A stretch of 64,000 nt of DNA, from positions 28,720 through 92,719 of the forward strand of contig CAZNPC010000001.1 in NCBI GenBank assembly GCA_964574765.1, read 5' to 3'. A program made the translations under genes and the position numbers. Below, piece by piece: positions 10,779 to 59,779 of the stretch. The stretch is from an uncultured Nitrospirales bacterium (GTDB taxonomy: Bacteria > Nitrospirota > Thermodesulfovibrionia > UBA6902 > BMS3Bbin08). Position 1 is the stretch's first letter; every line of letters starts with the position of its first letter. The notes beneath the pieces are model-generated. The model did not search any database and had not been told where the DNA came from. It saw only the letters and a program-made list of their open reading frames with translations.

Positions 10779-13199
10779 CTAATTTGTTGTTACTGATTGC
10801 AGTTTAAATATCTCTTTTTTTGCTTTCCTTGAAAAATAACCTTTCGGCTCGATCCTCAGATATTCCTGAAAATGGTATATGGCATTGCCCCTGTCATTCC
10901 ATTTCAAAAAAACAAGGGCAATGCCATAGTGCGCATTGGCGTAATTAGGATCAAGATCAAGCGCCTGTTTCTGATACATATGTGATCTATCAAACAGGCC
11001 CAGATCGTAATAAATATATCCTATATTATTGTACGCAGCCGGATTAAACCGGTTGACCTCGATCGATCTCTTAAGCTCTTCAAGCGCAAGATTGTGTTTT
11101 TTTGCAATGTATGCGGCAAGCCCCTTCTGAAAATGCTCCTCGCCCATATTATTTTTTTTTGCCTGTTCATACATTAACAATGCTTCATTATATTTTATCT
11201 GATCATCGTTTTCCTGATATAAAGACATAAGAATAGGATATATGGAAACAATACGATTATTCATCTTCAGCGCTTTTTCAAGATATCTAATACACGTTTT
11301 ATTATCGTTCATTTCCATATAAGCAAGCCCAATATTATGTAGAATGACAGCATCGTTTTTTAATTTAAAGGCCTTTTTGTAATATTTTATGGACTTTTCA
11401 TACTCCCCGGTCTTACTGTAAGCAAAAGCAAGCCCCTGATACGCGTTATATATGTTGCTCATGATGGGATAGTCCTCTACTTTTGACAGAGCTTCAATGG
11501 CTTCTTTATACATCCCCTTATCGTTATAGATGAATCCGAGAAACGTGTATGCCATTGACGACCCTGTTTCATTAATGTTTCTTTTCAATTCACTGATAAG
11601 ACCTTCCAGATAATTCTTATCATGCAGTCTGGACCTTACTGCAGATGCGCCGTTTGCCGGTACAACATAGCGGTATTCATCCTGTTCAATTATATGTTTA
11701 AACTCGTCACCTCTTTTAAGATACACCATTGACAGATCATCCCAGTACACAAGCGCCCAGTCTTTTGATGAAAGGCCAAAATCTATATCTATGTCAACTT
11801 CCCTGAAGAATTTCTCAAGAAGCACATAGCTTAGGAGTGCCACATTAAATCCGTACTTTTCATGGAGTTCCTCCAGAAGTTTCGGCCGAGTCCTTGCCAC
11901 ATCAAGAGATTCAAGCAGTTCCCTTGATATATTTCCCCTGCCATCCACAAAGGCTGACCTTTTTGGAAAATCCCTCCACGTTATATAACCTCCCCAGTGA
12001 AAGGCATTGAATATTCTGCCGTAAATATTTCTTTTATCAAGATACTGAAGCGCCAGTTCAGGAAGATATTCATTATTGTATCCAAAACCGAACTTCTTTC
12101 CCGGCGTCGTAAAAGGCTTGATCTCCAGGCAGGCGAGTGTCGTAATGATAATAAGAACTGTAATAAGACTTGCATTAAGAATTCGCCACGCTTTGCCGTT
12201 GATCTTTATCTGAGCCGCAATATTCCTGACTATTACGGGTGCGCCGACAATGCCAAGCAGAAACATAAATCTTAATCCTGAAAAAGCCATATAAATGAAT
12301 GGCGCCACCAAAAACACATGAATTATCGAGATCCTTTTTATGTTTACAAAAAATGAAAGAATAATGGCAGCTGTCAGGAAATAGACCATCTTAAAATCTT
12401 TCCAGAGAGGTTTTTGAAGCTCTGTGATTTCATCAGCATACCAGCTCGTCCCTGACATCATCTCCGTTGGAGCGGAAAACGAATAAGAAGTATATGGATT
12501 CAAAAGGGTAGCTACCAGTACTGCCATGAACACCAGCATAATGACCGCCAATTGCCTGTTTGTCGGTGTAAACGGAAGTTTTAATTTATATCTCCTGTTC
12601 AGTATCCGATGCAAAATGCCGCCGATTATAAAGGCGCTAAAAGGCACTATGACCAGAACTGTGCTCGGATGCATGTTGACCCATATTATCTGGGTAAGGG
12701 GCAATATATATATATACTTCTTGCCTTCATGAACAAAAGCATTAAGCGAATAAATTAAAAACGCCAGAAAGAACATCAGTGCTATATCCGGCCTTTCCAC
12801 AATTCTGTGCCTGATCATAAACACAATGAATATTAAGACCGCTATTGAAGCGATATGCTCCCTGTCCGGAATAAGCGAATCCTTCAGAAGTATATAAATA
12901 GCCCCTGTTACAATTGCGGCTTTAAGCAGTATAACGCCATACAGGCTGAATGCCGCGTAAGCCAGGTAGAAAACAACATCAAACAGCCATTCAGGGTCGG
13001 CAAAGCCCCTGTTCAGGCTTGGATAGGAAAAAGGCTCATTATCCGGGAAGCCCCTGTTGTTTACGATCTCCCTGCCAAGGCTGAGATGAGTCCCGGCGTC
13101 ATAAGATTCAATCTTTATTATGCCAAGGATAAAAACACACGCCAGAAAAACCGTAATTAAGATGCGGGTTGTCCTCTCCGTCTTCGCGTAACTGGTCAT
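10779..13199 (-). CDS. polytopic membrane protein with C-terminal TPR repeats (GT-C-like or DUF2723-like putative glycosyltransferase)
   Basis: About 13 predicted TM helices in the N-terminal 500 aa, then a TPR array (YNAYQGLAFAYSKTGEYEKSIKYYKKAFKL... ALDLDPNYANAHYGIALVF). Confidence 0.5.
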   Translation of the reverse strand: MTSYAKTERTTRILITVFLACVFILGIIKIESYDAGTHLSLGREIVNNRGFPDNEPFSYPSLNRGFADPEWLFDVVFYLAYAAFSLYGVILLKAAIVTGAIYILLKDSLIPDREHIASIAVLIFIVFMIRHRIVERPDIALMFFLAFLIYSLNAFVHEGKKYIYILPLTQIIWVNMHPSTVLVIVPFSAFIIGGILHRILNRRYKLKLPFTPTNRQLAVIMLVFMAVLVATLLNPYTSYSFSAPTEMMSGTSWYADEITELQKPLWKDFKMVYFLTAAIILSFFVNIKRISIIHVFLVAPFIYMAFSGLRFMFLLGIVGAPVIVRNIAAQIKINGKAWRILNASLITVLIIITTLACLEIKPFTTPGKKFGFGYNNEYLPELALQYLDKRNIYGRIFNAFHWGGYITWRDFPKRSAFVDGRGNISRELLESLDVARTRPKLLEELHEKYGFNVALLSYVLLEKFFREVDIDIDFGLSSKDWALVYWDDLSMVYLKRGDEFKHIIEQDEYRYVVPANGASAVRSRLHDKNYLEGLISELKRNINETGSSMAYTFLGFIYNDKGMYKEAIEALSKVEDYPIMSNIYNAYQGLAFAYSKTGEYEKSIKYYKKAFKLKNDAVILHNIGLAYMEMNDNKTCIRYLEKALKMNNRIVSIYPILMSLYQENDDQIKYNEALLMYEQAKKNNMGEEHFQKGLAAYIAKKHNLALEELKRSIEVNRFNPAAYNNIGYIYYDLGLFDRSHMYQKQALDLDPNYANAHYGIALVFLKWNDRGNAIYHFQEYLRIEPKGYFSRKAKKEIFKLQSVTTN

Positions 13200-13226
13200 A
13201 TATTTATTATAGTATGTTCCGTAACA

Positions 13227-13589
13227 TCAGTGTTTTTTATCCTTAAATTCACTTTTTAATATCGCGAGTTCCTGGGTCAGGTCTTTAACCTGAAGGCTTA
13301 ATTTTGAGATTATAATAGAAAAATGAATTGATATCGCAAGAAGAAAGAGTATTGAAAAGATAAACAGAGTGGTAGTGGGCTCTATCGCTCCGATCAGATT
13401 TGTAATAAATACAAGCGGTTTATACCACACTACCAGTATTATCATACTAAGCCCGGTTAATATCCATAACCATGCATATTCTTCTTTAAGCCTTCTCTTC
13501 CTTAAAAGCTCGATTATAATAATAAATATGATCACAGAGGTTATGACAGCAAAGATCTTTTGATGAGTGGACATGTGAATAAAAGACAT
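13227..13589 (-). CDS. small membrane protein (DUF2304-like), partner of a DPM1-like GT2
   Basis: 120 aa with 3-4 TM helices and an EEYAWLWIL motif. Immediately downstream of a dolichol-phosphate-mannose-synthase-like GT2, the usual context of DUF2304. Confidence 0.5.
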   Translation of the reverse strand: MSFIHMSTHQKIFAVITSVIIFIIIIELLRKRRLKEEYAWLWILTGLSMIILVVWYKPLVFITNLIGAIEPTTTLFIFSILFLLAISIHFSIIISKLSLQVKDLTQELAILKSEFKDKKH

Positions 13590-13672
13590 TTTCTACTCCC
13601 CTCCCCACGGAGATATATTATTACGTTTTATCAATGTGATTAGTATAGGCAGACCTGTATAATTAACCCTTT

Positions 13673-14404
13673 TTATTTTTTATGAGATAGTTCAGTAAAC
13701 CCCTCTCTCCTTATCATTGTTAGAATTATCGATAGAACCATTTTAAAGATATAATAAACAGGCTTAATACCCGAATGCATGGATATTGCTGAACCATACA
13801 TTTGTACCGGTACTTCCTTTATTCTGAACCCTGATCGCTTCAGCATTATCAGCGTATCTGCGTCAGGAAAATCCGCAGGGTATCTTTCATTGACGTAAAA
13901 ACGGAGCACATCCATGTTCAGTGCCTGATAACCTGATGTTGAATCAGTAATCGGCTGTTTCATTAAGATCGATGCAATGGAACTGAACATTCTCATGCCA
14001 AGCTTTCGCATAAAAGCGATCTTATAAACGTTCTTACCTATAAATCTTGAACCTATAATGACGTCGGCTTCGTTGCTTTTAAGTACCTTTAGAAGATCTG
14101 GAATATATGAGGCGTCATGCTGCCCGTCCCCGTCAAGTTGAACGACACAGTCATAACCATTCTTTAAGGCATATTTATAGCCTGTCTGAAGGGCGGCTCC
14201 ATAGCCGAGATTAAATGCATGGCTTATCACCAGCGCACCTTCCTTAAAAGCCTCGGTAGCACAATTATCAGTTGAACCGTCATCCACAGCTACAATCCTT
14301 GCATCCGGGGCCACCTGTTTGACATCAGCCACAACCTTCTTAATATTTAGCTCTTCGTTATACATTGGTATTATGATAAGAGTATTATCATATTTAGTCG
14401 TCAT
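13673..14404 (-). CDS. GT2 family glycosyltransferase (polyprenyl-phosphate sugar synthase, DPM1-like)
   Basis: IIIPMYNEELNI ... VDDGSTDN ... DGDGQHD GT-A motifs. 243 aa. Confidence 0.8.
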   Translation of the reverse strand: MTTKYDNTLIIIPMYNEELNIKKVVADVKQVAPDARIVAVDDGSTDNCATEAFKEGALVISHAFNLGYGAALQTGYKYALKNGYDCVVQLDGDGQHDASYIPDLLKVLKSNEADVIIGSRFIGKNVYKIAFMRKLGMRMFSSIASILMKQPITDSTSGYQALNMDVLRFYVNERYPADFPDADTLIMLKRSGFRIKEVPVQMYGSAISMHSGIKPVYYIFKMVLSIILTMIRREGFTELSHKK

Positions 14405-14502
14405 GGTTCAGATACCTTCTTTCACTCCAGATGTATTTATAAGCTCATATTTAACCACAAAGCAGTAGTGTATTTATTGTCCTCAATTATTTCAAGCTGT
14501 AT

Positions 14503-15948
14503 TTAATATTTCCTCAAAATTGATAGAGACGCCTTGAACTTGTTTAAAAAGTCAGTTAAACCATGTAATTTTTTTAGTCTTTTTAGAATATATGATGGCC
14601 TGAAATAAAACCTGAGATATGCTTTTCTTATGATCTTTTCCATGTTTTCTTTAGTAAGATGAGGGAATGATATAAGAGATTGTTTCATAGGATCTATGGG
14701 AACGTACTCATCAGCAATCATCCATTTGTTTTTCTTTGCGATTTCATGAAAGTTTGTATGGGGGAATGGTGTGCAAATTGAAAAAAGGGCGTAATCCACA
14801 TCGAGTTTTATAGTCTCTGAAATAGTGTATTCAATGGTCTCTTTTGTTTCAAGCGGACAACTGCCTATTAAAATATTAAGTTCAGGTTCAATTCCATATC
14901 TCTTAAGCATGTTGACTGCAGTATAAATCGATTCTACTTTTAGGTCCTTTCTAATATAATCAAGTATCTCCTGATTAAATGATTCAATTCCAATGTCGAT
15001 ATATTTACAGCCGGCTTCTGCCATTGCCTTTATCAATTCATTGTTTTCTAAATGATCTGCCCTTGCAAGGCAAGACCATTCCATATTGAGGTCTCGTATG
15101 CCATTACATATTTCAATAATTCGGCTGCGATTCCACACAAATTGGTCATCTAAAAAAGAAAAAGATTTAAAACCATGCTTGTGCAGCATTTTTATTTCTT
15201 CAATAATATTATCGGCCGACCTTAATCTTACCGGGGGTTTTTCCATTGCAGAACTACACCTTTTGAATTCAATCTCACGAGCAAAATCAAGAGAGTTTGG
15301 GACGCAATAATAACAATTGTAGGAACATCCCCGTGATGAGATCATAGTAGTAAAAGGCAGTGCACATAATTTAGGATTGTGATAGTTTGCCGGTTCAAGA
15401 AGTGTCCTATCCGGGAAAGGAAGTCGGTCGAGATTATCAATTAATTTCCGTCTCACAGTATCAACTTTATCGCCGTTCCTGAGACAGCTAATGCCCTCAA
15501 CATTTACAGGTTCTGCTTTTGATTTAATAACATCCACCAACTCTTTAATGCTATCTTCAGGTTCCCCTCTTATTACAAAGCTATTACTATCAATAAATTC
15601 AGAAGGGTTAACTGTGGGTTCAGTGCCCATGAAAATGAATTTCGCATCACTATTTTTCTCACTTATAATATCTCTTGCGCTAAGGTCTGTTTTTTTCGAG
15701 AGAAAAACTGTATAAAAAACGTATATGTCTGAGTCATCACTTGCTGCAAATTGATAAAATTCATTTTTTCTTACCTTTTCAATCGGTAAATCTCTTACGA
15801 TGACATCATAGCCAGCCTCTTTCAGAACTGTTGCCGGATAGAGAACAAAAATATTAGGTTGGGTGTAGATGCCGTAGTTGCAGCCAAAAATCCTTTCAGC
15901 CGCTGGCTTTCCATCAAGAGGAGGAGGTGTAAGAAAGGTTATCTTCAT
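14503..15948 (-). CDS. B12-binding-domain radical SAM protein (class B)
   Basis: Rossmann-like N-terminal domain, then CX3CX2C (GCSYNCYYC) radical-SAM cluster motif. 481 aa. Confidence 0.75.
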   Translation of the reverse strand: MKITFLTPPPLDGKPAAERIFGCNYGIYTQPNIFVLYPATVLKEAGYDVIVRDLPIEKVRKNEFYQFAASDDSDIYVFYTVFLSKKTDLSARDIISEKNSDAKFIFMGTEPTVNPSEFIDSNSFVIRGEPEDSIKELVDVIKSKAEPVNVEGISCLRNGDKVDTVRRKLIDNLDRLPFPDRTLLEPANYHNPKLCALPFTTMISSRGCSYNCYYCVPNSLDFAREIEFKRCSSAMEKPPVRLRSADNIIEEIKMLHKHGFKSFSFLDDQFVWNRSRIIEICNGIRDLNMEWSCLARADHLENNELIKAMAEAGCKYIDIGIESFNQEILDYIRKDLKVESIYTAVNMLKRYGIEPELNILIGSCPLETKETIEYTISETIKLDVDYALFSICTPFPHTNFHEIAKKNKWMIADEYVPIDPMKQSLISFPHLTKENMEKIIRKAYLRFYFRPSYILKRLKKLHGLTDFLNKFKASLSILRKY

Positions 15949-16958
15949 TACTTTATCTCGCTGTTTTTAATTGGATATATTAATTCTCTCATAAAACCCG
16001 TTGACCATGCAAAAAATATTATTGATATCACAGCAGGCACCCGCAAAGATACCTTAAAAGAACCAGTTTTAAATAGTGAGACCAAAAAATATATAAAAAG
16101 AAATAGTGCGTATATAAGGAATAAAGACGCAAACAACGGGCGAGAGAAGAAAAGTACAACAATGCCCATTGGCGGAGTTATCCCCACAAGTATATGAAAC
16201 ACATTGATCATCCTTTTGTCCCGTTTGCCTACCTGAAGCCTGCCTATGGCATACCTGTACATCTGCTTCCACAGCCTTACATGGGTCGGCCGCCTGTAAT
16301 GCCAGACAAAAACATCAGGCGTATATAAAAGGCTGTAGCCATTATCAATAATTCTTTGATTCATTTCAGTGTCGTCACAGGTGAGCAGGCCCTCGTCAAC
16401 AGGCATCACCTTTTCCAGTGCCTCCCTTTTATATATAGCGTTGCAGCCCGGTATGCTTCTTACTTTTTTTATTTCTTTTAGATTTCTTGCATGTACTGAC
16501 CCGGCCGCGAAGATCGCCTGACCGAAGACAAATCCCACTGCTTTGCCAAACAGGGTCTCATTTTCAGGGGTTAGATTTGGGCCCCCTACCCCGGCAATCG
16601 TTTCATCATCAAAATATTTAATAGAATTCTTCAACCAGTTTACGTCTGCAACGCAGTCCGCATCAGTAAACGCGATTATATCTCCTCTTGCCTGCTTAAA
16701 GGCAATATTTCTGCCGGGCGATACCGTACCTGAAGGATTTGCAACGACTCTTGCCCCAAGCTTTTCTGCTATTTTGACGGTATTATCAGTGGACTGGCCG
16801 TCAGCAACAATGATTTCATAAGAATTTCGCGGGTATTCCAGGGCATTTAAGGCATTAAGGCATTGTTCAATAAGGCGCTCCTCGTTCTTTGCGGGAATAA
16901 TAATAGAAACAAATGGGACCGGACTTTTTGTCTTGAACTCGTCAATTTGATTATCCAT
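15948..16958 (-). CDS. GT2 family glycosyltransferase with C-terminal TM helices
   Basis: VSIIIPAKNEERLIEQCL ... IIVADGQSTDNT ... FTDADC. Confidence 0.8.
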   Translation of the reverse strand: MDNQIDEFKTKSPVPFVSIIIPAKNEERLIEQCLNALNALEYPRNSYEIIVADGQSTDNTVKIAEKLGARVVANPSGTVSPGRNIAFKQARGDIIAFTDADCVADVNWLKNSIKYFDDETIAGVGGPNLTPENETLFGKAVGFVFGQAIFAAGSVHARNLKEIKKVRSIPGCNAIYKREALEKVMPVDEGLLTCDDTEMNQRIIDNGYSLLYTPDVFVWHYRRPTHVRLWKQMYRYAIGRLQVGKRDKRMINVFHILVGITPPMGIVVLFFSRPLFASLFLIYALFLFIYFLVSLFKTGSFKVSLRVPAVISIIFFAWSTGFMRELIYPIKNSEIK

Positions 16959-17005
16959 TATTAATATTTCAATTGCATTATTCGATAATTATATGGAATC
17001 ACGGT

Positions 17006-17923: not shown

Positions 17924-17944
17924 GACTGAATTATTTAAACACCC

Positions 17945-18162
17945 TCTTAACCACTGAAAACACTAAAACCACAGAATTTGTAAAATTATTTTTAAAAATT
18001 TTCATTTTTTGCAAAGCCTTTTCAGCGTATTCAGTGACCTCAGTGCCTGCCCGCCAGTCTGTTTGGTGGGGTTCATATTTTCATAGTTAATCGCCAATTG
18101 TCCGTAGTTAGTAATTAGTTTTTACCTCTTTCACTATTTTTTTTCAGTGTACTCTGTGTTTT
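17945..18162. repeat. MITE-like intergenic element bounded by 15-bp perfect terminal inverted repeats (aaccactgaaaacac ... gtgttttcagtggtt)
   Basis: Inverted repeats at 17945-17959 and 18148-18162. The interior shares the block ttcagtg(a/c)ctcagtgcctgccc...gccagtctgt with 59838-59895. Confidence 0.55.
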
Positions 18163-18179
18163 CAGTGGTTACTATGAGC

Positions 18180-52391: not shown

Positions 52392-52525
52392 AAGCATTGT
52401 TAGAAGTATGAGGCATGAGGTTAGAGGGAAAAAGCTTGAGGTTAGAGGTTTAAGGCTTTTGCCTCCCTCTTCCAACCTCATTCCTCAAACATATTTCCTT
52501 AGTCCTAAAATCTCAAAACTCAATC

Positions 52526-52915: not shown

Positions 52916-52920
52916 ACTTT

Positions 52921-53180
52921 ACCTCCAGCCTCTGCCCTCTGTCCTCTTCTGTTATGTTTTACCTCCAGCCTCTAACCTCTGTCCTCTTCTGTTATGTTTT
53001 ACCTCCAGCCTCTAACCTCTGTCCTCTTCTGTTATGTTTTACCTCCAGCCTCTGCCCTCTGTCCTCTTCTGTTATGTTTTACCTCCAGCCTCTGCCCTCT
53101 GTCCTCTTCTATTATGTTTTACCTCCAACCTCGGCCTCAACCTTGTTTTTATCCTCATCCTCCAACCTCTGTCCGCTTCT
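52921..53180. repeat. 40-bp tandem repeat, 5 near-perfect plus about 1.5 degenerate units (acctccagcctctgccctctgtcctcttctgttatgtttt)
   Basis: Units at 52921, 52961, 53001, 53041, 53081. Units 2-3 carry the tctaacctct variant. The 40-bp period is not a multiple of 3. Lies between gmd and the second 4HB gene. Confidence 0.9.
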
Positions 53181-53210
53181 TTAAACTCAGCCTTGGCCTC
53201 AGCCTCAGCT

Positions 53211-54353
53211 TTATCTATTTGTCAGTTTATTCTTCGTCCAATGTATGCCCTTCCCCTGTAAAATCTTATTGCCCGCTCCCGGTGCGTCTATGCCGATCAT
53301 TTCCATATCTGCGTCTACCATTATCTTAACTAACTCTTTAAAATTTACTTTTGGCTGCCAGCCGAGTTGTTTCGTAGCCTTTGATACGTCCGCTAATAGG
53401 TAATCTGTTTCTGTGGGACGAAAATACCTTGGGTCTATCTCGATCAGAACATCTCCGATGTTGATGTTAGAGGTCGGGGGTTGGAGGTTAGAGGCTAAGG
53501 ATTTAACAATGCCTTTTTCCTTAACTCCCTTCCCCTGCCATTCAAGTTCGATTCCGGCATAACTGAAGGCCAACTCGGCAAATTCTTTGACCGAATGGCT
53601 TTCACCCGTACCTATGACATAATCATCAGGCTCATCCTGCTGAAGCATCAGCCATTGGCATTCAACATACTCAGGCGCAAAACCCCAGTCTCTTTTGGCA
53701 TCCAGATTTCCAAGATATAGTTTTTTCTGCTTATTGGCGTTTATATTGGCAATGGCCCTGGTAATTTTTCTGGTTACAAAAGTCTCCCCTCTTCTCGGTG
53801 ATTCGTGATTGAACAATATGCCGTTACACGCAAACATGTTATAACCTTCTCGATAATTAACTGTCATCCAGTATGCATATGCTTTAGCGCATGCATACGG
53901 ACTTCGAGGCGCAAAAATAGTCTTTTCGTTCTGAGGGGGAGGAGCTGAGCCGAACATCTCACTGCTTGATGCCTGATAAAATCTCGTTTTTATCCCGCTT
54001 CTTTTTACAGCCTCAAGTAATCGTGTTGAACCCAGGGCAGTTACTTCACCCGTATACTCAGGAATATCAAAGCTTACCCTTACATGGCTCTGCGCGCCAA
54101 GATGATATATCTCGTCCGGCTTGATGTTATAAACCAGATTTGTCAATTGCCCGGCGTCAGTAAGGTCACCATAGTGGAGCAATAACCTGGCGCCTGATAT
54201 ATGCGGGTCAACATAGAGGTGGTCTATTCTTCCTGTGTTGAATGTGCTTGCTCGACGGATAAGTCCGTGAACCTCGTAGCCTTTTGATATGAGCAATTCG
54301 GTCAGATATGAGCCATCCTGCCCTGTAATCCCTGTGATCAATGCCTTTTTCAT
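53211..54353 (-). CDS. gmd: GDP-mannose 4,6-dehydratase
   Basis: [47 protein letters not shown], a diagnostic N-terminus. 380 aa. GGAGGG RBS. Confidence 0.9.
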
Positions 54354-54662: not shown

Positions 54663-55154
54663 CTATGCCCTTGTCAATATCGCCCTATCAACGATAACGC
54701 TTGACTGATATTCAATAGCTGACAATAGCAGGACAATCCTTTCGCTTCCATTCACTTCCCTTTCGAATATTCCGGTGAAATCTTTAAGCGGCCCTTCAGC
54801 GATCCTGACCCTGTCTCCGCGTTCAAAATTCACAGGTTTCATAGCTATTACTCCCTCATGTTCCTGCGACTTGATAAAATCAATGATATTCTCTGAAACC
54901 GGCCATGGTTTTTCTGTATCGCCTACTACTTTTTTTATGCCTCTTGTGTACCTTATCATCCATAGATGCTTTTCAGGTTCAAACCGTGCAAATATATAAC
55001 AGGGGAATAATGACGAGACAGTCTCTCTGTATTTTCCCCTTATAAACCTCTTCTGTTGAAGCTGGGGGCTGTAAACCGTCAGTCCCGCCTCTTTCAGGCT
55101 GTTTATGACATATCCTTCTCTTTTAGGTTTTGTATAAATTGAATACCAGTTCAT
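54663..55154 (-). CDS. NusG-family paralogue (RfaH/UpxY/LoaP-like specialised transcription antiterminator)
   Basis: 163 aa. NGN-domain start MNWYSIYTKPKRE...V...L and C-terminal KOW-like GDRVRIAEGPLKDFTGIFE. Sits at the head of the long operon. Confidence 0.7.
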   Translation of the reverse strand: MNWYSIYTKPKREGYVINSLKEAGLTVYSPQLQQKRFIRGKYRETVSSLFPCYIFARFEPEKHLWMIRYTRGIKKVVGDTEKPWPVSENIIDFIKSQEHEGVIAMKPVNFERGDRVRIAEGPLKDFTGIFEREVNGSERIVLLLSAIEYQSSVIVDRAILTRA

Positions 55155-55237: not shown

Positions 55238-55804
55238 TCATTTATTTACCGGATATATACTTTTTATTAATTCCTTATCAACCCCAAGGGCTAGTAATTT
55301 TTGATACACGCTGTCCCTTCTCATATGCGTGGTGATAATTATGTAATCAAAATCAACTTCATTGACATTGCCAAAGGGCATAACAACTGTTTTGAAAAAT
55401 TTCCTGCCTTTTCCCTCATCATCCAATACGCCCAGAAAATTTAGATTACACTCCTGAAGAGACAGGTATGCAATCTCTGCAACCTCATCAGCTCCTGCAA
55501 ATACGACTCTCTTGACGCCACTATCCTGTAGTTTGATGAATAACTGCCTGAAATCCCTTCTTGCCTCACGGAATACCCTGTTATAGTTTTGCAGAAGATG
55601 GTATGTTAAACGGCTTTTTTCAGTAAAGCCCTTTGCAGTGAGAAAGTATGCATATCTTTTGGATGGAATATTCTTTATTGTTACAAAGCCCTTTGAGATA
55701 AGGTTTTTTATGTACGAATTAACAAGACCGAGTGCCAAATTCAGTCTTTTACTCAAATCTCTTTGAGATAGAGACTCGCCCCTTGAAATTTCATCAAGTA
55801 GCAT
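55238..55804 (-). CDS. winged-helix DNA-binding protein with C-terminal Rossmann-like (CoA_binding_3 / sugar-transferase N-domain-like) domain, putative locus regulator
   Basis: N-terminal wHTH (LSQRDLSKRLNLALGLVNSYIKNLISKGFV). C-terminal KRVVFAGADEVAEIAYL...NFLGVLDDEGKG...VDFDYIIITT pattern. Start set at ATG 55804. The GTG start at 55864 lies inside the conserved palindromic operator. Confidence 0.5.
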   Translation of the reverse strand: MLLDEISRGESLSQRDLSKRLNLALGLVNSYIKNLISKGFVTIKNIPSKRYAYFLTAKGFTEKSRLTYHLLQNYNRVFREARRDFRQLFIKLQDSGVKRVVFAGADEVAEIAYLSLQECNLNFLGVLDDEGKGRKFFKTVVMPFGNVNEVDFDYIIITTHMRRDSVYQKLLALGVDKELIKSIYPVNK

Positions 55805-55808
55805 TAAA

Positions 55809-55915
55809 GACTTGTAACCATCCTGATTATCAGGCTTTTTATCGTTCAGATTGTGAACGTTCACAATTTGAACATATCACATTTTAAATCAATTGTCAAG
55901 TAAAAAAAAGGAGGG
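55809..55915 (-). promoter_or_regulatory. sigma70-like promoter (TTGACA-N17-TGaTATGTT) with the 12-bp perfect palindrome GTGAACGTTCAC at about +1, upstream of the regulator/nusG-like genes; copy 2 of a duplicated module
   Basis: Minus-strand read: ccttttttttacTTGACAattgatttaaaatgTGaTATGTTcaaattGTGAACGTTCACaatctgaacgat. About 90% identical to 34449-34555 over about 107 bp. Confidence 0.55.
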
Positions 55916-55948: not shown

Positions 55949-56779
55949 TTATTTGCTTTCAAGATAGGCTTTTAGTCCCTGATTCCAGTGTCTGAGGGTC
56001 TCAATGCCCTCAAGTTTCAACATGTCATTTCCGAGCACTGAAAATGCCGGCCTTTTAGCCGGGCGATTGAGTTTTTCAGAGGATACCGGATTGATCCGCG
56101 CATTAACCTTTTTCAACCTTGCTATTTCAACGGTAAATTCGTACCATGAGCAAGCAGATGTGTTGGTTATATGATATATACCATATTCCCTGCCGATAAG
56201 CGCCTTTAATTTTCCCGCAAAATCATATGCGTAGGTCGGCGAACTAATCTGATCATTAACAACATCTATATCTTTTTTTTCAGCCAAAAGTCTCACTATT
56301 GTATCAACAAAATTCTTGCCGTTCCTTCCGAAAAGACCGGATGTCCTTACAATGTAAAACTTATTAGTCAGCATTTGAACAGAATTCTCTCCCTCAAGTT
56401 TTGAAAGTCCATATATATTTACGGGGTTAGGTTTGTCATGTTCGCTGTAAGGCTCTTTCTTTCTGCCGTCAAAGACATAATCAGTGCTGATATAAATAAC
56501 GGGACAATTAATCGCTTCGCAGGCTGAAACGACATTTCGAGTACCTGTACCATTAACAAGATATGCCCGTTCAGGATCGATCTCACAGCCATCAACGTCA
56601 GTAAAAGCCGCGGCATGGATCAGATAATCGGGTTTTATCTCTTTAATCCTGGATAAAGTTTTATCAAGATCCGTAATGTCAAAATCACTGCGGGTCAGCC
56701 ATACAACATCCTGATCGTGTAAAACCTGTTTAAGGGCAAAACCGAGTATCCCTGATGAACCTGTTACAGCAACTCTCAA
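55949..56779 (-). CDS. rfbD: dTDP-4-dehydrorhamnose reductase
   Basis: MRVAVTGSSGILGFAL ... RfbD family length and motifs (YxxxK in YGLSKLEGE). Confidence 0.85.
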   Translation of the reverse strand: MRVAVTGSSGILGFALKQVLHDQDVVWLTRSDFDITDLDKTLSRIKEIKPDYLIHAAAFTDVDGCEIDPERAYLVNGTGTRNVVSACEAINCPVIYISTDYVFDGRKKEPYSEHDKPNPVNIYGLSKLEGENSVQMLTNKFYIVRTSGLFGRNGKNFVDTIVRLLAEKKDIDVVNDQISSPTYAYDFAGKLKALIGREYGIYHITNTSACSWYEFTVEIARLKKVNARINPVSSEKLNRPAKRPAFSVLGNDMLKLEGIETLRHWNQGLKAYLESK

Positions 56780-57003
56780 TCCTTCAACCTTTCCTTATAA
56801 TAATAATTGGCCGCAAATTTGCACTTATCATATTAAAACTCGAAATTCGACGTAATATCAATATTTGAATGTTCAAAATTCTAAACTTTTAACTTAAAAT
56901 TATCATTGTTTGTAATATTAGTATTTTGGTCATTCGATATTGTTTCGTGCTTCGGTTTTCGTATTTCGAATTTAACCCTTCATAGGTCTGAGTGAGTCAG
57001 TGG

Positions 57004-58023
57004 CTAAATAGATTCTCCATACTGGGTCTTGTAATATTCCGCGTATTCTCCCGAAATGATCCTCTGCCACCACTGTTTATTGTCAAGGTACCATCCGACT
57101 GTATCTGATATGCCGGCCTCAAAGTCCATTTCAGGTTTCCAGCCGAATTCTTTCTCAACCCTTGCAGGGTCCAGCGCATACCGCCTGTCATGACCCGGCC
57201 TGTCATTTACAAAGGTAATGAGGCCGTTAAGCTTCCCTTCGTCAAGCTCGAGTTTTTCAGCTATCGCATTCAGGACTAAATTGATCGTTGATATGTTAGT
57301 CTTCTCATTTCTTGAACCGATATTGTATACACCACCCGGCCTGCCCTGATGCAGAATGATATCTAATGCCTTGCAATGATCGGATACATGGATCCAGTCC
57401 CTTACATTCTTACCGTCACCATATACCGGTATCGGCTTGTTGCTTACAGCGTTTAATATTACAAGAGGAAGAAGCTTCTCAGGAAACTGGTACGGGCCGT
57501 AATTGTTTGAACATCTGGTTACTATTGCCTTTACACCGTAAGTCTCAACATATGACCTTACAAGCAGATCAGATGATGCCTTGCTTGCCGCATACGGGCT
57601 GTTCGGCAAAAGAGGGGAATCTTCACTAAACAGGCCTTTTTCGATCGAACCGTATACTTCATCTGTCGATACATGCAGAAAAGTACACCCCCTGTTCTTC
57701 GAATACTCGAGAAGATTATTTGTGCCTATCACGTTGGTCTGTATAAATGGATCGGCCTTAAGGATACTTCTGTCAACGTGGCTTTCAGCGGCAAAATTTA
57801 CGATAGCATCCACATCTATGCCTTCGATGATCTGCCTATCGCATATATCACCTTTTACAAACGAGTAATTAGGAGAGCTTTCAATATCATTAAGGTTTTC
57901 GAGATTCCCGGCGTAAGTGATCTTATCCAGGTTGATCACATGATAATCAGGATGCGCAGACATAAGATGCCTGATGAAATTAGAACCAATAAACCCGGCA
58001 CCGCCTGTGACCAATATTTTCAT
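57004..58023 (-). CDS. rfbB: dTDP-glucose 4,6-dehydratase
   Basis: [21 protein letters not shown] ... HVSTDEVYG ... YAASKASSD, diagnostic for RmlB. Confidence 0.9.
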   Translation of the reverse strand: MKILVTGGAGFIGSNFIRHLMSAHPDYHVINLDKITYAGNLENLNDIESSPNYSFVKGDICDRQIIEGIDVDAIVNFAAESHVDRSILKADPFIQTNVIGTNNLLEYSKNRGCTFLHVSTDEVYGSIEKGLFSEDSPLLPNSPYAASKASSDLLVRSYVETYGVKAIVTRCSNNYGPYQFPEKLLPLVILNAVSNKPIPVYGDGKNVRDWIHVSDHCKALDIILHQGRPGGVYNIGSRNEKTNISTINLVLNAIAEKLELDEGKLNGLITFVNDRPGHDRRYALDPARVEKEFGWKPEMDFEAGISDTVGWYLDNKQWWQRIISGEYAEYYKTQYGESI

Positions 58024-58146
58024 TCCTGCTCCGCAGAATAGTTCATAGTTGTCCCCGCAAATCCTGATGGATTAAGACGCGGGGCAGGCCGTTGTTCATT
58101 GTTAATTGCTAATTGATAATTTTTCATTTTGCAATGTTATTTTCTA

Positions 58147-58587
58147 TTAGTCTATTTTAAACTGCGAATCAGGTTCATTTTCATACCTGACTTCATCCGC
58201 CTCTTCCTTTTTCCCCCGGCCTCTGTAAAGCCGGTCAGGCATATTAATGACATAGCTGTCGGAAGATCCGATATTCTTATATGCATGCACAATTCCCGGC
58301 GGTATAACCACCATTGTAGGAACATCTGAAGTATCTATTGTCTTATGCTCCCCGTATGTTGCTGATCCTTTTCTATTATCCCAAAGATATATCCGGAACT
58401 TCCCGACCAGGCAGAAACAGTCGGTCTGTTCTTTATGTTCATGCGGGCCCCTGACAATCCCGGTTCTGGTCAGAGAAAGATACGCCATCATCGGCCTCAG
58501 AGATGTCTCATCCGACCTGATCATCTCGCCGACCCACCCCCGCCTATCTTCATTTAGTGAGATTTCTCTTATTTCCAGTCCGTCCAT
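58147..58587 (-). CDS. RmlC-like cupin: dTDP-sugar 3,5-epimerase or FdtA/QdtA-type 3,4-ketoisomerase (short, 146 aa)
   Basis: RGPHEHKEQTDCFCLVGKFRI closely parallels the FdtA motif RGFHAHKKLEQVLVCLNGSCRV. In the rfbC position between rfbA and rfbB. Confidence 0.6.
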   Translation of the reverse strand: MDGLEIREISLNEDRRGWVGEMIRSDETSLRPMMAYLSLTRTGIVRGPHEHKEQTDCFCLVGKFRIYLWDNRKGSATYGEHKTIDTSDVPTMVVIPPGIVHAYKNIGSSDSYVINMPDRLYRGRGKKEEADEVRYENEPDSQFKID

Positions 58588-58714
58588 GGTTAATCACCAA
58601 CTCTTAGTTGATAGCTCATAGTAAAAACATTTAAAATAGCCCTTAGTTCACAGTTAATATTATAGTCTATTCGCTACGAGCTATGAGCCAAGAGCTATCA
58701 GCTATTCACGTCCT
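58588..58714. repeat. intergenic repeat family A copy between rfbC and rfbA
   Basis: See 19107-19261. It also carries cgagctatgagccaagagctatcagct, matching 4150-4177 gctatgagctataaactatcagctatgagct. Confidence 0.6.
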
Positions 58715-59779
58715 TTATACTTCAACTACTGAATCATCACCTATCATAAGCCTTAGAGCTTTATGAAGAGTACTTTTGGATATCTTTACCCTGCGACCGA
58801 TAAGGCAGTCTTCCATCCGCTCAATATCCTTCACCTCACTGCCGGTCATAATGACTGAATGCTCCACTGAAGACCTTATTATCCTGACATTGTCCCCGAT
58901 ACTTGAATGAGGCCCGATAAAAGCGCTCTCTATCTCTGAATCTTCACCGATAATGACCGGTCCCCGGATCGTACTGTTCTTTATCATCGTTCCTTTCCCT
59001 ACGTATACTCTGCCGTCTACTCTGCTCTTTTCATCAACATGACCAAACATATCACCTCTTAGCCATTCATCAAGCACAACAGCATTTGCAGTAAGAATAT
59101 CGTCTTTTTTCCCTGTGTCAAGCCACCATGTATCAAGAATACGACTCTCCACCCTTTTTTTCGACTCTATCAGTTCCTGAATGGCATCGGTAATCTCCAA
59201 CTCTCCTCTTTTTGAAGGTTTTATCTTCTCTATAGCTTCATGTATGGCTGATGAAAAAATGTATATACCTACCAGGGCAAGATTAGATCTTGGCTCTTCC
59301 GGTTTTTCAACCAGGCGGACGACCCTGCCTTCTGCCGTTGTCTCAGCAACACCGAACTGTTTTGGATCGTTAACTTCTTTAAGTAATATAAGTCCCTCAG
59401 GACGCAGTTTATTGAATTCCTGAACAAATATGTTGATATCAGATCCAACAAGGTTATCACCCAGGTACATTACAAACGGTGAATCAGATAGAAAATCTTT
59501 CGCGGTCTTAATAGCATGTGCCAGTCCGCCGGGTATAACTTGAGTTATATACTCTATCTCTATGTTCCACATACTGCCGTCACCGACGGTATCTTTTATC
59601 TCCTGACCAGTCTCAGGCGATATGATTATTCCTATATCTTTAATACCTGCATTAACAATATTGTCAATGCAGTAAAACAATATAGGTTTATTGGCGACAG
59701 GAACAAGCTGTTTGGCTCCTGAATGTGTCAGCGGCCGCAGGCGAGTCCCCTTTCCTCCACTTAATATAATTGCCTTCAT
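58715..59779 (-). CDS. rfbA: glucose-1-phosphate thymidylyltransferase (long form with C-terminal left-handed beta-helix)
   Basis: MKAIILSGGKGTRLRPLTHSGAKQLVPVANKPILFY. Hexapeptide-repeat C-terminus. 354 aa. Confidence 0.85.
   Translation of the reverse strand: MKAIILSGGKGTRLRPLTHSGAKQLVPVANKPILFYCIDNIVNAGIKDIGIIISPETGQEIKDTVGDGSMWNIEIEYITQVIPGGLAHAIKTAKDFLSDSPFVMYLGDNLVGSDINIFVQEFNKLRPEGLILLKEVNDPKQFGVAETTAEGRVVRLVEKPEEPRSNLALVGIYIFSSAIHEAIEKIKPSKRGELEITDAIQELIESKKRVESRILDTWWLDTGKKDDILTANAVVLDEWLRGDMFGHVDEKSRVDGRVYVGKGTMIKNSTIRGPVIIGEDSEIESAFIGPHSSIGDNVRIIRSSVEHSVIMTGSEVKDIERMEDCLIGRRVKISKSTLHKALRLMIGDDSVVEV

Follow-up and report, generated by a model that had tools for sequence, protein, structure and literature searches.

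Introduction

In E. coli O9a, the chain terminator WbdD is encoded directly after wzt. The O9a/O8 systems of E. coli, Klebsiella O12 and the WzmWzt of Aquifex aeolicus are the closest described relatives of the export genes reported here, sharing with them Wzm and a Wzt with a Wzt_C domain, without Wzx/Wzy. The function of WbdD has been described (PMC3482155), as have the known Wzt caps (methyl, methyl-phosphate and Kdo) and the cap-reading role of the Wzt C-terminal domain (PMC9445017). Sulfotransferase genes lie inside the polysaccharide clusters for synechan (xss, cyanobacteria) and for capsules of marine Vibrio and Cobetia (PMC8205485, PMC11641403, PMC11766843), while RfaH, Bacteroides UpxY and LoaP are operon-specific NusG paralogues (PMC7593976, PMC11685472). 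A GT2 of the polyprenyl-phosphate-sugar synthase type and a GT-C transferase are common to GacI/GacJ/GacL (group A carbohydrate of S. pyogenes), PpgS/Rv3632 with its GT-C (M. tuberculosis), GtrABC, ArnC/ArnT and the GT136 pentofuranose systems; DUF2304 is the family of GacJ, which activates GacI just as Rv3632 activates PpgS (bioRxiv 10.1101/180810).

Here, we compare with these systems a 49-kb glycan locus from an uncultured Nitrospirota bacterium, lying within a 64,000-nucleotide stretch of DNA (hereafter, the window). The tract comprises at least two separate polysaccharide export units and a conserved add-on glycosylation cassette, and it is probably best understood as a resident, recombination-shuffled cell-envelope glycan region of four working blocks, not one pathway. 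These blocks are the rml genes, MarR/NusG with Wzm/Wzt unit 1, Wzm/Wzt unit 2 and a conserved tail.

Extent and Gene Content

The initial annotation described a surface-glycan biosynthesis region, and nearly all of the families it named were confirmed when the calls were checked with Pfam and NCBIfam HMMs. All ORFs of at least 100 aa with a family match in 10779-59779 are on the minus strand, as had been claimed; the proposed run of about 48 consecutive genes, on the other hand, amounts to 45 intact genes, many overlapping their neighbours by 1-20 nt, plus debris (two GT2 N-terminal fragments at 34777-35048 and an unassigned 99-aa ORF at 48888-49187). Supply genes of the dTDP-6-deoxyhexose, GDP-fucose, UXS/epimerase and CMP types were matched, as were two DegT aminotransferases and the DUF115/MptE-like and CgeB-like proteins; the two sulfotransferases, three radical-SAM enzymes, AsnB and methyltransferases are likewise truly encoded. 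Two counts had to be lowered: "at least 9" GT2 enzymes became seven intact genes and two fragments, and 5-6 methyltransferases became four intact methyltransferase domains.

The boundaries of the locus are real. Its upstream edge is a strong predicted minus-strand terminator (60139-60108), and the gene following position 10779 encodes an outer-membrane beta-barrel belonging to an OMP-NHL-cytochrome cluster. Throughout, promoters, terminators and the extents of operons are predicted at consensus level, promoter-like sites being no commoner in the locus than in shuffled sequence.

60108-60139, minus strand, intrinsic-terminator-like hairpin (14 bp stem and T-run), ends the upstream cytochrome gene
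55949-59779, minus strand, block A (rmlA, cupin, rmlB, rmlD)
58715-59779, minus strand, rmlA (RmlA-long, 462 bits against a cutoff of 320)
58147-58587, minus strand, RmlC/FdtA-like cupin (dTDP_sugar_isom, 35.9 bits)
57004-58023, minus strand, rmlB
55949-56779, minus strand, rmlD (RmlD_sub_bind, 299 bits)

Block A is predicted to supply dTDP-6-deoxyhexose: its enzymes would make dTDP-4-keto-6-deoxyglucose and derivatives, which may pass to rhamnose-type sugars and to the DesI-like aminotransferases of unit 1.

Regulators and the Duplicated Promoter/Operator

55806-55905, minus strand, predicted promoter/operator copy 1, overlapping the first ~19 codons of the MarR-type gene
55238-55864, minus strand, MarR-family EPS-associated winged-helix regulator (TIGR04176, HTH_24)
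54663-55154, minus strand, NusG paralogue (NGN and KOW), candidate operon-specific antiterminator
34446-34545, minus strand, predicted promoter/operator copy 2, 90% identical to copy 1

Copy 1 reads TTGACA-17-(TG)TATGTT, then a tandem pair of 15-nt palindromes, GTTCAAATTGTGAAC and GTTCACAATCTGAAC. The two copies share 79 nt at 90% identity (34446-34524 and 55806-55884), and a 41-nt promoter/operator consensus matches these two sites only, against a chance expectation of 0. Copy 2 retains 29 codons from the 5' end of marR, a remnant that ends at the likely start of wzm#2 (MSDRITVY, ~34425). In a relative (L092), the same -35, extended -10 and 30-nt palindrome precede a MarR gene 62% identical to ours; the NusG paralogue is absent there.

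Both regulatory proteins fall below the curated cutoffs of all named subfamilies. The MarR-type protein scores 56 bits with TIGR04176 (cutoff 88) and 39 bits with HTH_24; the start of its gene is uncertain, being either GTG at 55864 or an ATG some 60 nt downstream. The NusG paralogue scores 63.9 bits with NusG NGN and 108 bits with the RfaH model (cutoff 144.5), its best family matches being RfaH and then UpxY. With RfaH, UpxY and LoaP it shares its small size, its NGN and KOW domains and a gene position close to the start of a long polysaccharide operon; unlike them, it is accompanied by a MarR-type regulator and by a palindromic operator, and neither an ops-like site nor a UpxZ partner was identified here. 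We suppose that the promoter with its double palindromic operator drives the MarR-type regulator, the NusG paralogue and unit 1, across whose ~20 kb the NusG paralogue would probably keep RNA polymerase processive. Copy 2 would serve unit 2, and because the promoter/operator is duplicated there, both units may answer to the same regulator.

Two Export Units

Unit 1 (35115-54353) combines GDP-fucose genes, Wzm1/Wzt1, amino-sugar enzymes, a sulfotransferase, methyltransferases and glycosyltransferases with genes for what is probably a CMP-activated acidic sugar and a DUF115 transferase.

49335-54353, minus strand, head of unit 1, gmd to wzt#1
53211-54353, minus strand, gmd (Gmd, 484 bits)
52918-53136, tandem repeat of 40 nt x5.5, between gmd and IVP gene #1
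52526-52915, minus strand, IVP gene #1, four-helix-bundle
51441-52481, minus strand, fcl (Fcl, 495 bits, cutoff 500), true start probably ~52385
50621-51535, minus strand, wzm#1
49335-50615, minus strand, wzt#1 with Wzt_C
44959-48859, minus strand, amino-sugar sub-block
48146-48859, minus strand, WbqC-like
47354-48079, minus strand, methyltransferase
46152-47357 and 44959-46155, minus strand, two DesI-like DegT aminotransferases
39119-44802, minus strand, transferase sub-block
43870-44802, minus strand, 310-aa protein without family
42651-43688, minus strand, Sulfotransfer_3 enzyme
41430-42425, minus strand, methyltransferase
40066-41433, minus strand, 455-aa protein, weak GT1 match
39119-40069, minus strand, GT2
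35115-39138, minus strand, CMP-acid sub-block
38482-39138, minus strand, cyclase/arylformamidase-like
37812-38492, minus strand, CTP_transf_3 cytidylyltransferase, PseF/KdsB-like
36868-37812, minus strand, D-2-hydroxyacid dehydrogenase
36122-36871, minus strand, SDR
35115-35951, minus strand, DUF115/MptE-like transferase

At the boundary between the units, a terminator-like hairpin, GT2 pseudogene fragments and promoter copy 2 follow in this order. Unit 2 (19262-34461) holds Wzm2/Wzt2, a cassette of sulfotransferase and DUF268 methyltransferase, a GT/methyltransferase fusion, AsnB, GT2 enzymes, and SPASM and B12-domain radical-SAM enzymes.

34777-35110, minus strand, inter-unit junction (hairpin and GT2 fragments)
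35110-35096, minus strand, terminator-like hairpin
34962-35048 and 34777-34956, minus strand, two truncated GT2 N-terminal fragments (one by Pfam, 58.6 bits)
29872-34461, minus strand, head of unit 2, wzm#2 to DUF268 methyltransferase
33580-34461, minus strand, wzm#2
33081-33461, minus strand, IVP gene #2, 76-nt direct repeats on both flanks
31730-32950, minus strand, wzt#2 with Wzt_C
30745-31686, minus strand, Sulfotransfer_1 enzyme
29872-30630, minus strand, DUF268 methyltransferase
19262-29860, minus strand, body of unit 2, CgeB-like fusion to GT2
28280-29860, minus strand, CgeB-like GT and methyltransferase fusion
27135-28253, minus strand, radical-SAM/SPASM
25364-27130, minus strand, AsnB amidotransferase (419 bits, cutoff 267)
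24295-25335, 22813-24264 and 21762-22829, minus strand, three GT2
20377-21765, minus strand, B12-domain radical SAM
19262-20311, minus strand, last GT2 of the body

The two Wzm/Wzt exporters proposed earlier are both present by HMM, and both Wzt proteins carry Wzt_C (66 and 42 bits, cutoff 30.4). Their nucleotide-binding domains are 42% identical overall, and their C-terminal domains have no detectable similarity. The suggested ABC-dependent route also holds: with Wzm/Wzt present, families for Wzx, Wzy, WaaL and initiating phosphoglycosyltransferases gave no match in any scanned ORF, nor was an initiating transferase, ligase, UDP-glucose dehydrogenase or PAPS-synthesis gene found in the window. 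In both units, a glycan would be assembled on a polyprenyl carrier on the cytoplasmic side of the membrane and probably finished by modification of its non-reducing end; the C-terminal domain of Wzt would read this modified end, and Wzm/Wzt would carry out export.

Both sulfotransferases have PAPS-binding motifs (PKSGNTW / RKGVSGDWKNF and PRAGST / RNPLAVLNS). As in E. coli O9a, modification enzymes come directly after wzt: wzt#2 is followed by the PAPS sulfotransferase and then the DUF268 methyltransferase, in contrast to the methyl, methyl-phosphate and Kdo caps listed for other systems, and the order wzm-wzt-sulfotransferase-methyltransferase recurs in all three close metagenome homologues. 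One test of the cap idea was negative: the C-terminal domains of sulfotransferase-linked Wzt from three metagenome loci (L171-L173), 36-49% identical to one another, are unlike those of Wzt2 and Wzt1. Further differences from the described systems are the two Wzm/Wzt units side by side and, relative to E. coli O9a/O8, the lack of a WbdD-like kinase or coiled-coil ruler. Unlike the synechan and Vibrio/Cobetia clusters, this one belongs to an anaerobe-type Nitrospirota and places a sulfotransferase immediately after wzt together with a methyltransferase.

The Conserved Tail

17006-19106, minus strand, tail sugar supply (SDR and epimerase)
18180-19106, minus strand, UXS/ArnA-like decarboxylase-type SDR, 90% identical in relative L084
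17006-17923, minus strand, NAD-dependent epimerase
14503-16958, minus strand, swappable cassette (GT2 and radical-SAM enzyme)
15948-16958, minus strand, GT2, translationally coupled to the radical-SAM enzyme
14503-15948, minus strand, HpnJ/AprD4-like radical-SAM enzyme
10779-14404, minus strand, three-component core
13673-14404, minus strand, PpgS/GacI-like polyprenyl-phosphate sugar synthase GT2, 243 aa (best NCBIfam match PpgS)
13227-13589, minus strand, DUF2304/GacJ-like 3-TM protein
10779-13199, minus strand, GT-C-fold membrane glycosyltransferase with periplasmic alpha/beta and TPR domains

The tail, unlike the middle of the locus, is conserved in a relative. Nitrospirae MAGs GCA_002897775 and GCA_002897755 keep the order GT2c (76%), UXS-like (90%), epimerase (67%), [GT4], GT2b (66%), DUF2304 (70%), TPR protein (61%) and, further on, OMP-NHL-cytochrome; in L084, a GT4 gene replaces the GT2 and radical-SAM cassette. 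We propose that the UXS-like enzyme and epimerase provide a nucleotide sugar, whose sugar the GacI/PpgS-like GT2 then attaches to polyprenyl phosphate with the aid of the DUF2304 protein; from there, the GT-C/TPR enzyme would pass it to an extracytoplasmic acceptor, possibly LPS, a glycan or a protein. Adjacency of the GT2 to a DUF2304 3-TM protein and a GT-C-fold transferase matches the GacI/GacJ/GacL type, and the auxiliary epimerase and decarboxylase-type SDR resemble the epimerases in PMC11127046 and ArnA of the Arn pathway. Unlike three-component systems, however, the tail has a GT-C with a long periplasmic TPR array and a membrane part without Pfam family, an inserted GT2 and radical-SAM pair, and no visible gene for a polyprenyl-phosphate-sugar flippase in the window.

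Animals have TMTC-type GT-C/TPR protein O-mannosyltransferases. It is tempting to suppose that the end product here is a protein glycan, the GT-C/TPR enzyme (whose GT-C fold neighbours bear out the initial description) binding its protein substrate through the TPR domains, which are protein-binding modules. It could resemble the oligosaccharyltransferases PglB/AglB/STT3 and move a carrier-linked glycan to S-layer proteins, pilins or cytochromes; alternatively, it could resemble PMT/TMTC and attach single sugars carried by polyprenyl phosphate. Its best long-alignment structural neighbours (STT3B, AglB, Pmt4, DPY19, PglB) are all protein-glycosylating GT-C enzymes, its family is 40-63% identical across phyla, more than strain-variable O-antigen enzymes, and an OMP-NHL-multihaem cytochrome cluster neighbours the locus here and in the relative. 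Still, we consider a protein glycan unlikely: the acceptor cannot be read from GT-C fold likeness, neither an acceptor protein nor a sequon can be pointed to, the adjoining GacI/GacJ-like pair fits polysaccharide-modifying systems, and in CP070644 (Nitrospiraceae) the orthologue sits among lptC/lptA/lptB and lptD, which points towards LPS.

Two of the three radical-SAM enzymes have an N-terminal B12-type domain and one is of the SPASM type. The tail enzyme shares a Rossmann-like N-terminal domain and a radical-SAM barrel with HpnJ and with AprD4 (apramycin), and its coupling to a GT2 recalls HpnI/HpnJ of hopanoid side-chain synthesis; in contrast to that system, the window has no hopanoid genes, and the context is GacI/GacJ-like and glycan genes. 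HpnJ is its best NCBIfam match (198 bits, cutoff 578) and AprD4 its best solved structure, both by sequence (E 3.5e-20) and by fold (TM 0.75-0.79). As both are non-methylating sugar-radical enzymes, the C-methylated product predicted earlier is not the best-supported chemistry; the GT2 and HpnJ/AprD4-like pair, a putative swappable add-on to the tail, most likely catalyses a radical dehydration or rearrangement of a sugar.

One Glycan, Island or Mosaic

The locus had been read as a super-locus for a single exotic glycan; this reading is partly supported, in that the glycan region stands and the single glycan is not supported. A co-transcribed super-operon yielding one sulfated, methylated, amidated and C-methylated polysaccharide or protein glycan would agree with 45 genes that share a strand, lie close together and often overlap, with a NusG paralogue near the head, suited to a very long transcript, and with block A sugars that plausibly feed enzymes of other blocks. 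We nevertheless find it improbable, given two complete exporters that have unrelated carbohydrate-binding domains at the Wzt C terminus, the hairpin, pseudogene debris and second promoter/operator copy between the units, a tail conserved independently of the middle, and radical-SAM enzymes nearest to non-methylases. Composition argues in the same direction, GC3 ranging gene by gene from 0.29 to 0.52, which indicates a mosaic. Certain genes might work for either unit, and a single composite molecule, such as an O-chain with a side branch, could yet be the joint product of the blocks.

A horizontally acquired island between 10.7 and 59.8 kb is highly improbable, despite many genes lower in GC and GC3 than the housekeeping flank and NHL/cytochrome genes on both sides, since no tRNA, integrase, transposase or flanking direct repeat was found, the downstream junction and tail genes are syntenic in a related MAG (proteins 56-90% identical), the two NHL genes are only 39% identical and so are no recent target duplication, and low GC is confined to scattered internal patches, a pattern also seen in ordinary variable glycan loci.

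The combination of sulfotransferases and radical-SAM enzymes had been called highly unusual. Both the sulfotransferase-methyltransferase and the GT2-radical-SAM cassettes, however, recur in many metagenomic glycan loci: the radical-SAM family of the tail has 63 full-length orthologues in metagenome loci, a same-strand GT2 directly adjoins the orthologue in at least 32 of 45 loci, and a PpgS-like GT2 with DUF2304 is also present in 7 of the 17 loci with 5-kb flanks. The locus is, overall, a resident variable region, and its enzymes, given this recurrence, are uncharacterised but not unique.

Gene Content of the Locus

Between 59779 and 10779, the minus strand carries a continuous gene series of 45 intact ORFs, all 100 aa or longer, with many overlaps of 1–20 nt; gene debris is present in two of the larger gaps. 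The initial annotation took this tract as coding for one heavily decorated glycan. The glycan genes are real, and nearly all of the families then named were recovered when every gene was compared with Pfam and NCBIfam; the reading as a single glycan is only partly supported. We see the tract rather as a mosaic, presumably co-regulated, in which two ABC-transporter-dependent glycan units stand together with a dTDP-sugar supply block that they share and with a conserved tail of the three-component type. Its main features and surroundings, on the minus strand from 60139 to 10779, are the following:

60139-60108, strong terminator predicted after a multihaem cytochrome gene, upstream edge of the locus
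55806-55884, putative promoter/operator copy 1
55238-55864, MarR-family gene, unit 1
54663-55154, NusG paralogue gene, unit 1
50621-51535, wzm of unit 1
34446-34524, putative promoter/operator copy 2
33580-34461, wzm of unit 2
30745-31686, sulfotransferase gene, unit 2
20377-21765, B12-type radical-SAM gene
19262-20311, GT2 gene (GT2c)
15948-16958, GT2 gene
14503-15948, radical-SAM gene
13673-14404, GT2 gene coding for 243 aa (GT2b)
10779-13199, GT-C/TPR gene (TPR protein)
Downstream of 10779, an outer-membrane beta-barrel protein (547 aa, ending ...TRKF), then an NHL-repeat protein, then a 758-aa multihaem cytochrome

Genes of the nucleotide-sugar routes were among those confirmed. The dTDP-sugar route comprises a long-form RmlA (462 bits; curated cutoff, 320), RmlB, RmlD and a small RmlC/FdtA-like cupin; the GDP-fucose route, Gmd and Fcl; and the third, a UXS/ArnA-like SDR with an epimerase. 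For the CMP-type route, there is a PseF/KdsB-like cytidylyltransferase, accompanied by a 2-hydroxyacid dehydrogenase, an SDR, a cyclase-family protein and a DUF115/MptE-like transferase. Also confirmed were two DegT aminotransferases (both DesI-like, with a WbqC-like protein also present), an AsnB amidotransferase (419 bits, cutoff 267), two sulfotransferases with readable PAPS-binding motifs, three radical-SAM enzymes (two with an N-terminal B12-type domain, one of the SPASM type) and two Wzm/Wzt pairs with a Wzt_C domain on both Wzt proteins. A CgeB-like glycosyltransferase is fused to a methyltransferase domain; the TPR protein has 806 aa, with a membrane part and TPRs.

Two counts had to be corrected. 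Instead of at least nine GT2 genes, there are seven intact ones and two truncated GT2 N-termini (34777-35048; one of them confirmed by Pfam with 58.6 bits); instead of five to six methyltransferases, we counted four intact methyltransferase domains. A 99-aa ORF (48888-49187), which by eye gave the impression of a truncated methyltransferase, had no Pfam match and was rejected as such. Two further proteins, of 455 aa (40066-41433) and 310 aa (43870-44802), belong to no Pfam or NCBIfam family and have no sequence relatives in the PDB; a single weak GT1 match (E 0.0012) was obtained for the former, and calling both glycosyltransferases is a guess. As first remarked, no Wzx, Wzy or initiating-transferase family was matched by the scanned window ORFs of at least 100 aa, nor was WaaL; within the 64-kb window, we found neither an initiating polyprenyl-phosphate sugar-1-phosphate transferase nor a ligase. 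Every part of the locus is of a known kind, and what differs is their combination, together with two recurrent uncharacterised cassettes.

The two exporters deserve a separate comment. PF01061 is matched by both Wzm proteins (53.5 bits in unit 2 and 79.1 bits in unit 1; cutoff 26.9), and the Wzt proteins combine ABC_tran with PF14524 Wzt_C (66.1 and 42.1 bits; cutoff 30.4). Wzt1 and Wzt2 are 42% identical, a likeness limited to the ATPase part, and their C-terminal domains have no detectable similarity. Such unrelated domains would fit the export of two different polymers.

A Putative Promoter/Operator Shared by the Two Units

The repeat search returned a 79-nt direct repeat with 90% identity between its copies, at 34446-34524 and 55806-55884. 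In the aligned copies, a spacer of 17 nt separates the -35 box, TTGACA, from an extended -10 box, TG-TATGTT; the repeat also holds two tandem 15-nt palindromes, GTTCAAATTGTGAAC and GTTCACAATCTGAAC, which carry GTTCAnnnnnTGAAC, and the first ~19 codons of a MarR-type gene. A 41-nt consensus had matches at these two sites only, against a chance expectation of 0. The MarR-family gene comes after copy 1 and is followed by the NusG paralogue, gmd, fcl, and wzm and wzt of unit 1. In copy 2, the marR frame stops after 29 codons, and the stop overlaps the likely start of the second wzm. The truncated GT2 genes, two in number, lie directly upstream of copy 2, as does a terminator-like hairpin (35110-35096) located after the final gene of unit 1.

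In front of the MarR gene of L092, a metagenomic relative with a 62% identical MarR protein, this promoter recurs together with a perfect 30-nt palindrome; thus, the element has been kept by selection. Promoter-like sites in the locus are no commoner than in shuffled sequence; our argument uses only this duplicated and phylogenetically conserved promoter. We take the element for a putative MarR operator that overlaps both the -10 box and the transcription start, a role proposed from sequence. The MarR-type protein would then autoregulate unit 1 and co-regulate unit 2 via the shared operator.

The NusG paralogue offers another way of reading the palindromes. Its NGN domain is evident (PF02357, 63.9 bits) and is joined by a KOW-type C-terminal domain, residues 3-156 of its 163 being covered by the RfaH model. 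RfaH is its best match, UpxY the second; all of its scores are below the respective cutoffs (RfaH 108.3 against 144.5, UpxY 69.9 against 100, LoaP 46.7 against 125, NusG 51.1 against 135.7). Membership in the RfaH, UpxY and MarR_EPS equivalogs was rejected on curated cutoffs, and we treat the paralogue as a candidate operon-specific antiterminator, filed in no named subfamily. A promoter/leader of ~100 nt is shared by both units, and the palindromes suit a MarR operator at least as well as a recruitment element for the NusG paralogue. No NusG paralogue was found after the MarR gene of L092, though L092 keeps the element.

At 55836-55876 and 34476-34516, the ATG/GTG of a conserved MarR N-terminal extension lies only ~6 nt past the -10 box; should translation begin there, the mRNA would have no leader. 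The first 20 MarR residues are kept as protein in L092.

A Resident Variable Region

It had been suggested that the locus might be an island with breaks at 10.7 and 59.8 kb. We rejected horizontal acquisition as a genomic island: insertion signatures are lacking in the window, and a related MAG preserves synteny across the downstream junction. ARAGORN and Rfam (at gathering thresholds) returned no tRNA and no Rfam family in the window, and no integrase or transposase family was matched among the window ORFs in Pfam. The left flank consists of the housekeeping genes fabG, fabF, rnc, purM and purN, and the best FabF match in a scan of genome contigs (67% identity) comes from the Nitrospirae MAG SZUA-77. 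For the TPR protein, matches of 63% identity occur in the Nitrospirae MAGs GCA_002897775 and GCA_002897755. These matches place the source among uncultured Nitrospirota, at phylum level only; identical genes are carried by the samples SRR6439358 and SRR6439360. The gene order in the relative MAG, with identities in brackets, is GT2c (76%), UXS-like (90%), epimerase (67%), GT4, GT2b (66%), DUF2304 (70%), TPR protein (61%), SurA, the outer-membrane protein, NHL (64%) and cytochrome (56%). The locus sits at the same chromosomal site there, with the tail kept and the middle different. Given this shared site and the absence of tRNA, Rfam, integrase and transposase matches in the window, we regard it as a resident variable region. 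GC3 varies gene by gene from 0.29 to 0.52 in the locus, against 0.42–0.50 in the housekeeping flank; such a patchwork is usual for recombining glycan loci.

The beta-barrel, NHL and 758-aa cytochrome genes form a cluster (window 5458-10540) conserved in the relative (13635-18750 of its locus, L084), which may be a porin-cytochrome-type extracellular electron-transfer module. On the other side of the locus (60158-62152), there is a second NHL protein (39% identical) paired with a 240-aa cytochrome. The gap between the TPR and outer-membrane protein genes (10680-10760) holds two to three degenerate operator half-sites, GTTCATAAGTTCAAC, GTCTATAATTTGAAC and GTTCATAAT, with two mismatches each; the MarR-type regulator might act on this cluster too, and the half-site matches could be due to chance. 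Related glycan loci are dotted with toxin-antitoxin and DUF559 genes (ParE, PIN/PhdYeFM, PemK, HEPN/NTP_transf_2) between the biosynthesis genes: L088 3828-8948; L092 6988-7422 and 10144-12513; L084 18779-19455.

Repeats fill many intergenic gaps in the housekeeping flank and the glycan locus alike. They include 7-nt tandem repeats (678-710, 2940-2972, 4059-4090, 4140-4170, 19162-19186) and shared elements of 40–70 nt (families at 4068/19164/58599 and an inverted pair at 2932/58100), and look like a genome-wide class similar to cyanobacterial STRR elements. Inside the operons, there are two genes of the PF05635 "23S rRNA intervening-sequence protein" (IVP) family, a four-helix-bundle, Avd-like family (33081-33461, 52526-52915). 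The former lies between wzm and wzt of unit 2, with 76-nt direct repeats of 8-nt units (32997-33072, 33495-33570). Between gmd and the latter, a 40-nt unit is repeated 5.5 times (52918-53136; 96% matches), its coding strand repeating the purine-rich, Shine-Dalgarno-like GGAGGTAAA that directly precedes the IVP start codon; after this gene, a 21-nt unit is repeated 2.9 times (52399-52458) inside an apparent N-terminal extension of the Fcl ORF. Both genes look like small cassettes, with no reverse transcriptase nearby.

The Sulfotransferase Cassette of Unit 2

The two sulfotransferase domains score 82.8 bits (PF00685) and 100.6 bits (PF13469), and their 5'-PSB/3'-PB motifs can be read as PKSGNTW/RKGVSGDWKNF and PRAGST/RNPLAVLNS. 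The former pair, which is like that of eukaryotic SULTs, belongs to the enzyme of unit 2 (30745-31686), a member of a small family with 49 matches at E<=1e-10. All three close homologues with readable contigs (49–55% identity) lie in the order wzm, wzt, sulfotransferase, methyltransferase (DUF268 or Methyltransf_11), another methyltransferase and glycosyltransferases, and the window agrees with their wzm-wzt-sulfotransferase-methyltransferase order. In two distant homologues (38–42%), the sulfotransferase is still found between methyltransferases and glycosyltransferases, with no wzt within the fetched range.

The terminator gene of E. coli O9a occupies the position that the sulfotransferase gene has here, and this correspondence suggests that the sulfotransferase and methyltransferase of unit 2 make a sulfate/methyl cap. 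In systems where Wzt has such a C-terminal domain, a non-reducing-end cap halts elongation and licenses export, the known caps being methyl, methyl-phosphate and Kdo (PMC9445017); WbdD is such a chain terminator (PMC3482155). By analogy, a sulfated (and methylated) non-reducing-end cap installed by the cassette could stop growth and license export. Plain decoration of the repeat unit by the same enzymes is equally possible. A test for co-evolution of cap and CBD did not support the cap for the window: in the three close-homologue loci, the C-terminal domains of Wzt were alike (36–49% identity) and unlike those of Wzt2 or Wzt1 of the window, so the sulfate cap stays conjectural; the ATPase domains of these loci are nearer to Wzt1 (75–79%) than to Wzt2 (54–60%).

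The Three-Component Tail

The best NCBIfam matches of GT2b are all polyprenyl- or dolichyl-phosphate sugar synthases (PpgS with 116 bits, AglJ, a dolichyl-P hexose transferase and ArnC), a likeness at family level only, every score being below its equivalog cutoff. Its gene is followed by that of a DUF2304 protein (PF10066, 85 bits) with three predicted TM segments. In this family, GacJ stimulates the Und-P-GlcNAc synthase GacI, to which it binds, and Rv3632 stimulates PpgS (bioRxiv 10.1101/180810). A GT-C enzyme then moves the sugar outside the cytoplasm in both types of system (bioRxiv 10.1101/180810; general scheme in PMC11127046).

The third component, the TPR protein, is a predicted integral-membrane transferase of the GT-C fold whose membrane part is without a Pfam domain. 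Its family, annotated only as "TPR protein", is 40–63% identical across Nitrospirota, Methylomirabilota and Binatia. No match was found in the window to a flippase family for a lipid-linked monosaccharide (GtrA, Wzx-like or MATE); a flippase could be encoded elsewhere or be dispensable.

As for the acceptor, action on proteins rather than on LPS or polysaccharide seems somewhat unlikely to us. We keep it as a rival reading because the nearest folds to the TPR protein all glycosylate proteins. In one Nitrospiraceae genome, an orthologue lies among lpt genes. We also observed an invariant W-x-L-V-Y-W-D-D at residues 481-488 of the family, in the periplasmic domain, which is superficially like WWDYG of the STT3/PglB/AglB oligosaccharyltransferases.

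The GT2/Radical-SAM Cassette

The radical-SAM gene at 14503-15948 is translationally coupled to the GT2 gene at 15948-16958. Its family (~480 aa, 50–76% identical) extends over Nitrospirota, Omnitrophota, Planctomycetota, Riflebacteria, Spirochaetota and others. In a context survey of 80 metagenome loci and three contigs, a full-length orthologue was present in 63, with a same-strand GT2 gene directly adjoining it in at least 32 of the 45 loci with enough flank. Among the 17 loci with 5-kb flanks, 12 had further B12-type radical-SAM paralogues and seven had a pair of PpgS-like GT2 and DUF2304, to which a further membrane protein of GT-C-like type (PMT_2/DUF2142, YfhO/AglB-like) was often added. 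Among its neighbours in the window, the radical-SAM gene is lowest in GC3 (0.32), and the related MAG has a GT4 gene in the same tail slot; thus, the GT2 and radical-SAM genes appear to form a swappable cassette.

The initial annotation expected a C-methylated or otherwise radical-modified glycan. The CX3CX2C core is clear in both B12-type enzymes (PF04055, 70.6 and 66.6 bits), with C208/C212/C215 invariant in 31 homologues. The B12-binding domain scores 75.7 bits in the 20377-21765 enzyme and 31.8 bits in the 14503-15948 enzyme, just under the cutoff of 32.1; the fold of the latter has a Rossmann-like N-domain and matches AprD4 best. The two enzymes are 30% identical, and the 20377-21765 gene is likewise coupled to a GT2 gene. 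The best named relative of the 14503-15948 enzyme is HpnJ, for which contraction of the glucosamine ring on a GT2-made hopanoid glycoside has been proposed (PMC9204698); at 198 bits against a cutoff of 578, membership in this equivalog was rejected. The closest solved structure is AprD4 (sequence E 3.5e-20; fold TM 0.75–0.79, model pLDDT 89.5), a radical-SAM sugar 1,2-diol dehydratase. HpnJ and BchE, the top matches, are non-methylases, as is AprD4, and the methylase models HpnR, PhpK, KedN5 and RiPP C-methyltransferases were all far below their cutoffs. C-methylation lost ground accordingly, as the enzyme is not in any family with demonstrated methyl transfer. For 14503-15948, the sequence and the model favour a sugar dehydration or rearrangement by radical chemistry over C-methylation as the candidate reaction, since HpnJ and AprD4 are nearest and the B12 score is just under the Pfam threshold. 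No informative NCBIfam relatives were found for the SPASM enzyme beside AsnB.

It is tempting to suppose that this widespread cassette, which frequently occurs together with GacI/GacJ-like genes and a GT-C gene, could produce a sugar, radically rearranged or deoxygenated, that is carried by polyprenyl phosphate. Here, the carrier sugar could be delivered outside the cytoplasm by the TPR-bearing, OST/PMT-like GT-C protein, possibly onto proteins.

Conclusions

A large glycan locus is nothing out of the ordinary, and most parts of the present one are known. What makes it valuable is the map it gives of recurrent uncharacterised cassettes in uncultured anaerobes. The duplicated promoter/operator provides a simple testable model for the co-regulation of two surface polymers, while the Wzt-tied sulfotransferase/methyltransferase pair, the GT2-coupled radical-SAM family and the well-conserved GT-C/TPR transferase family are concrete targets for biochemistry. 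That the sulfotransferase and GT2/radical-SAM cassettes should each turn out to be new glycobiology is, in our opinion, distinctly unlikely. If true, a sulfated cap would add a new class to the chain terminators of ABC-transporter-dependent glycans, and delivery of the modified carrier sugar by the TPR protein would be a bacterial counterpart of TMTC-type glycosylation.
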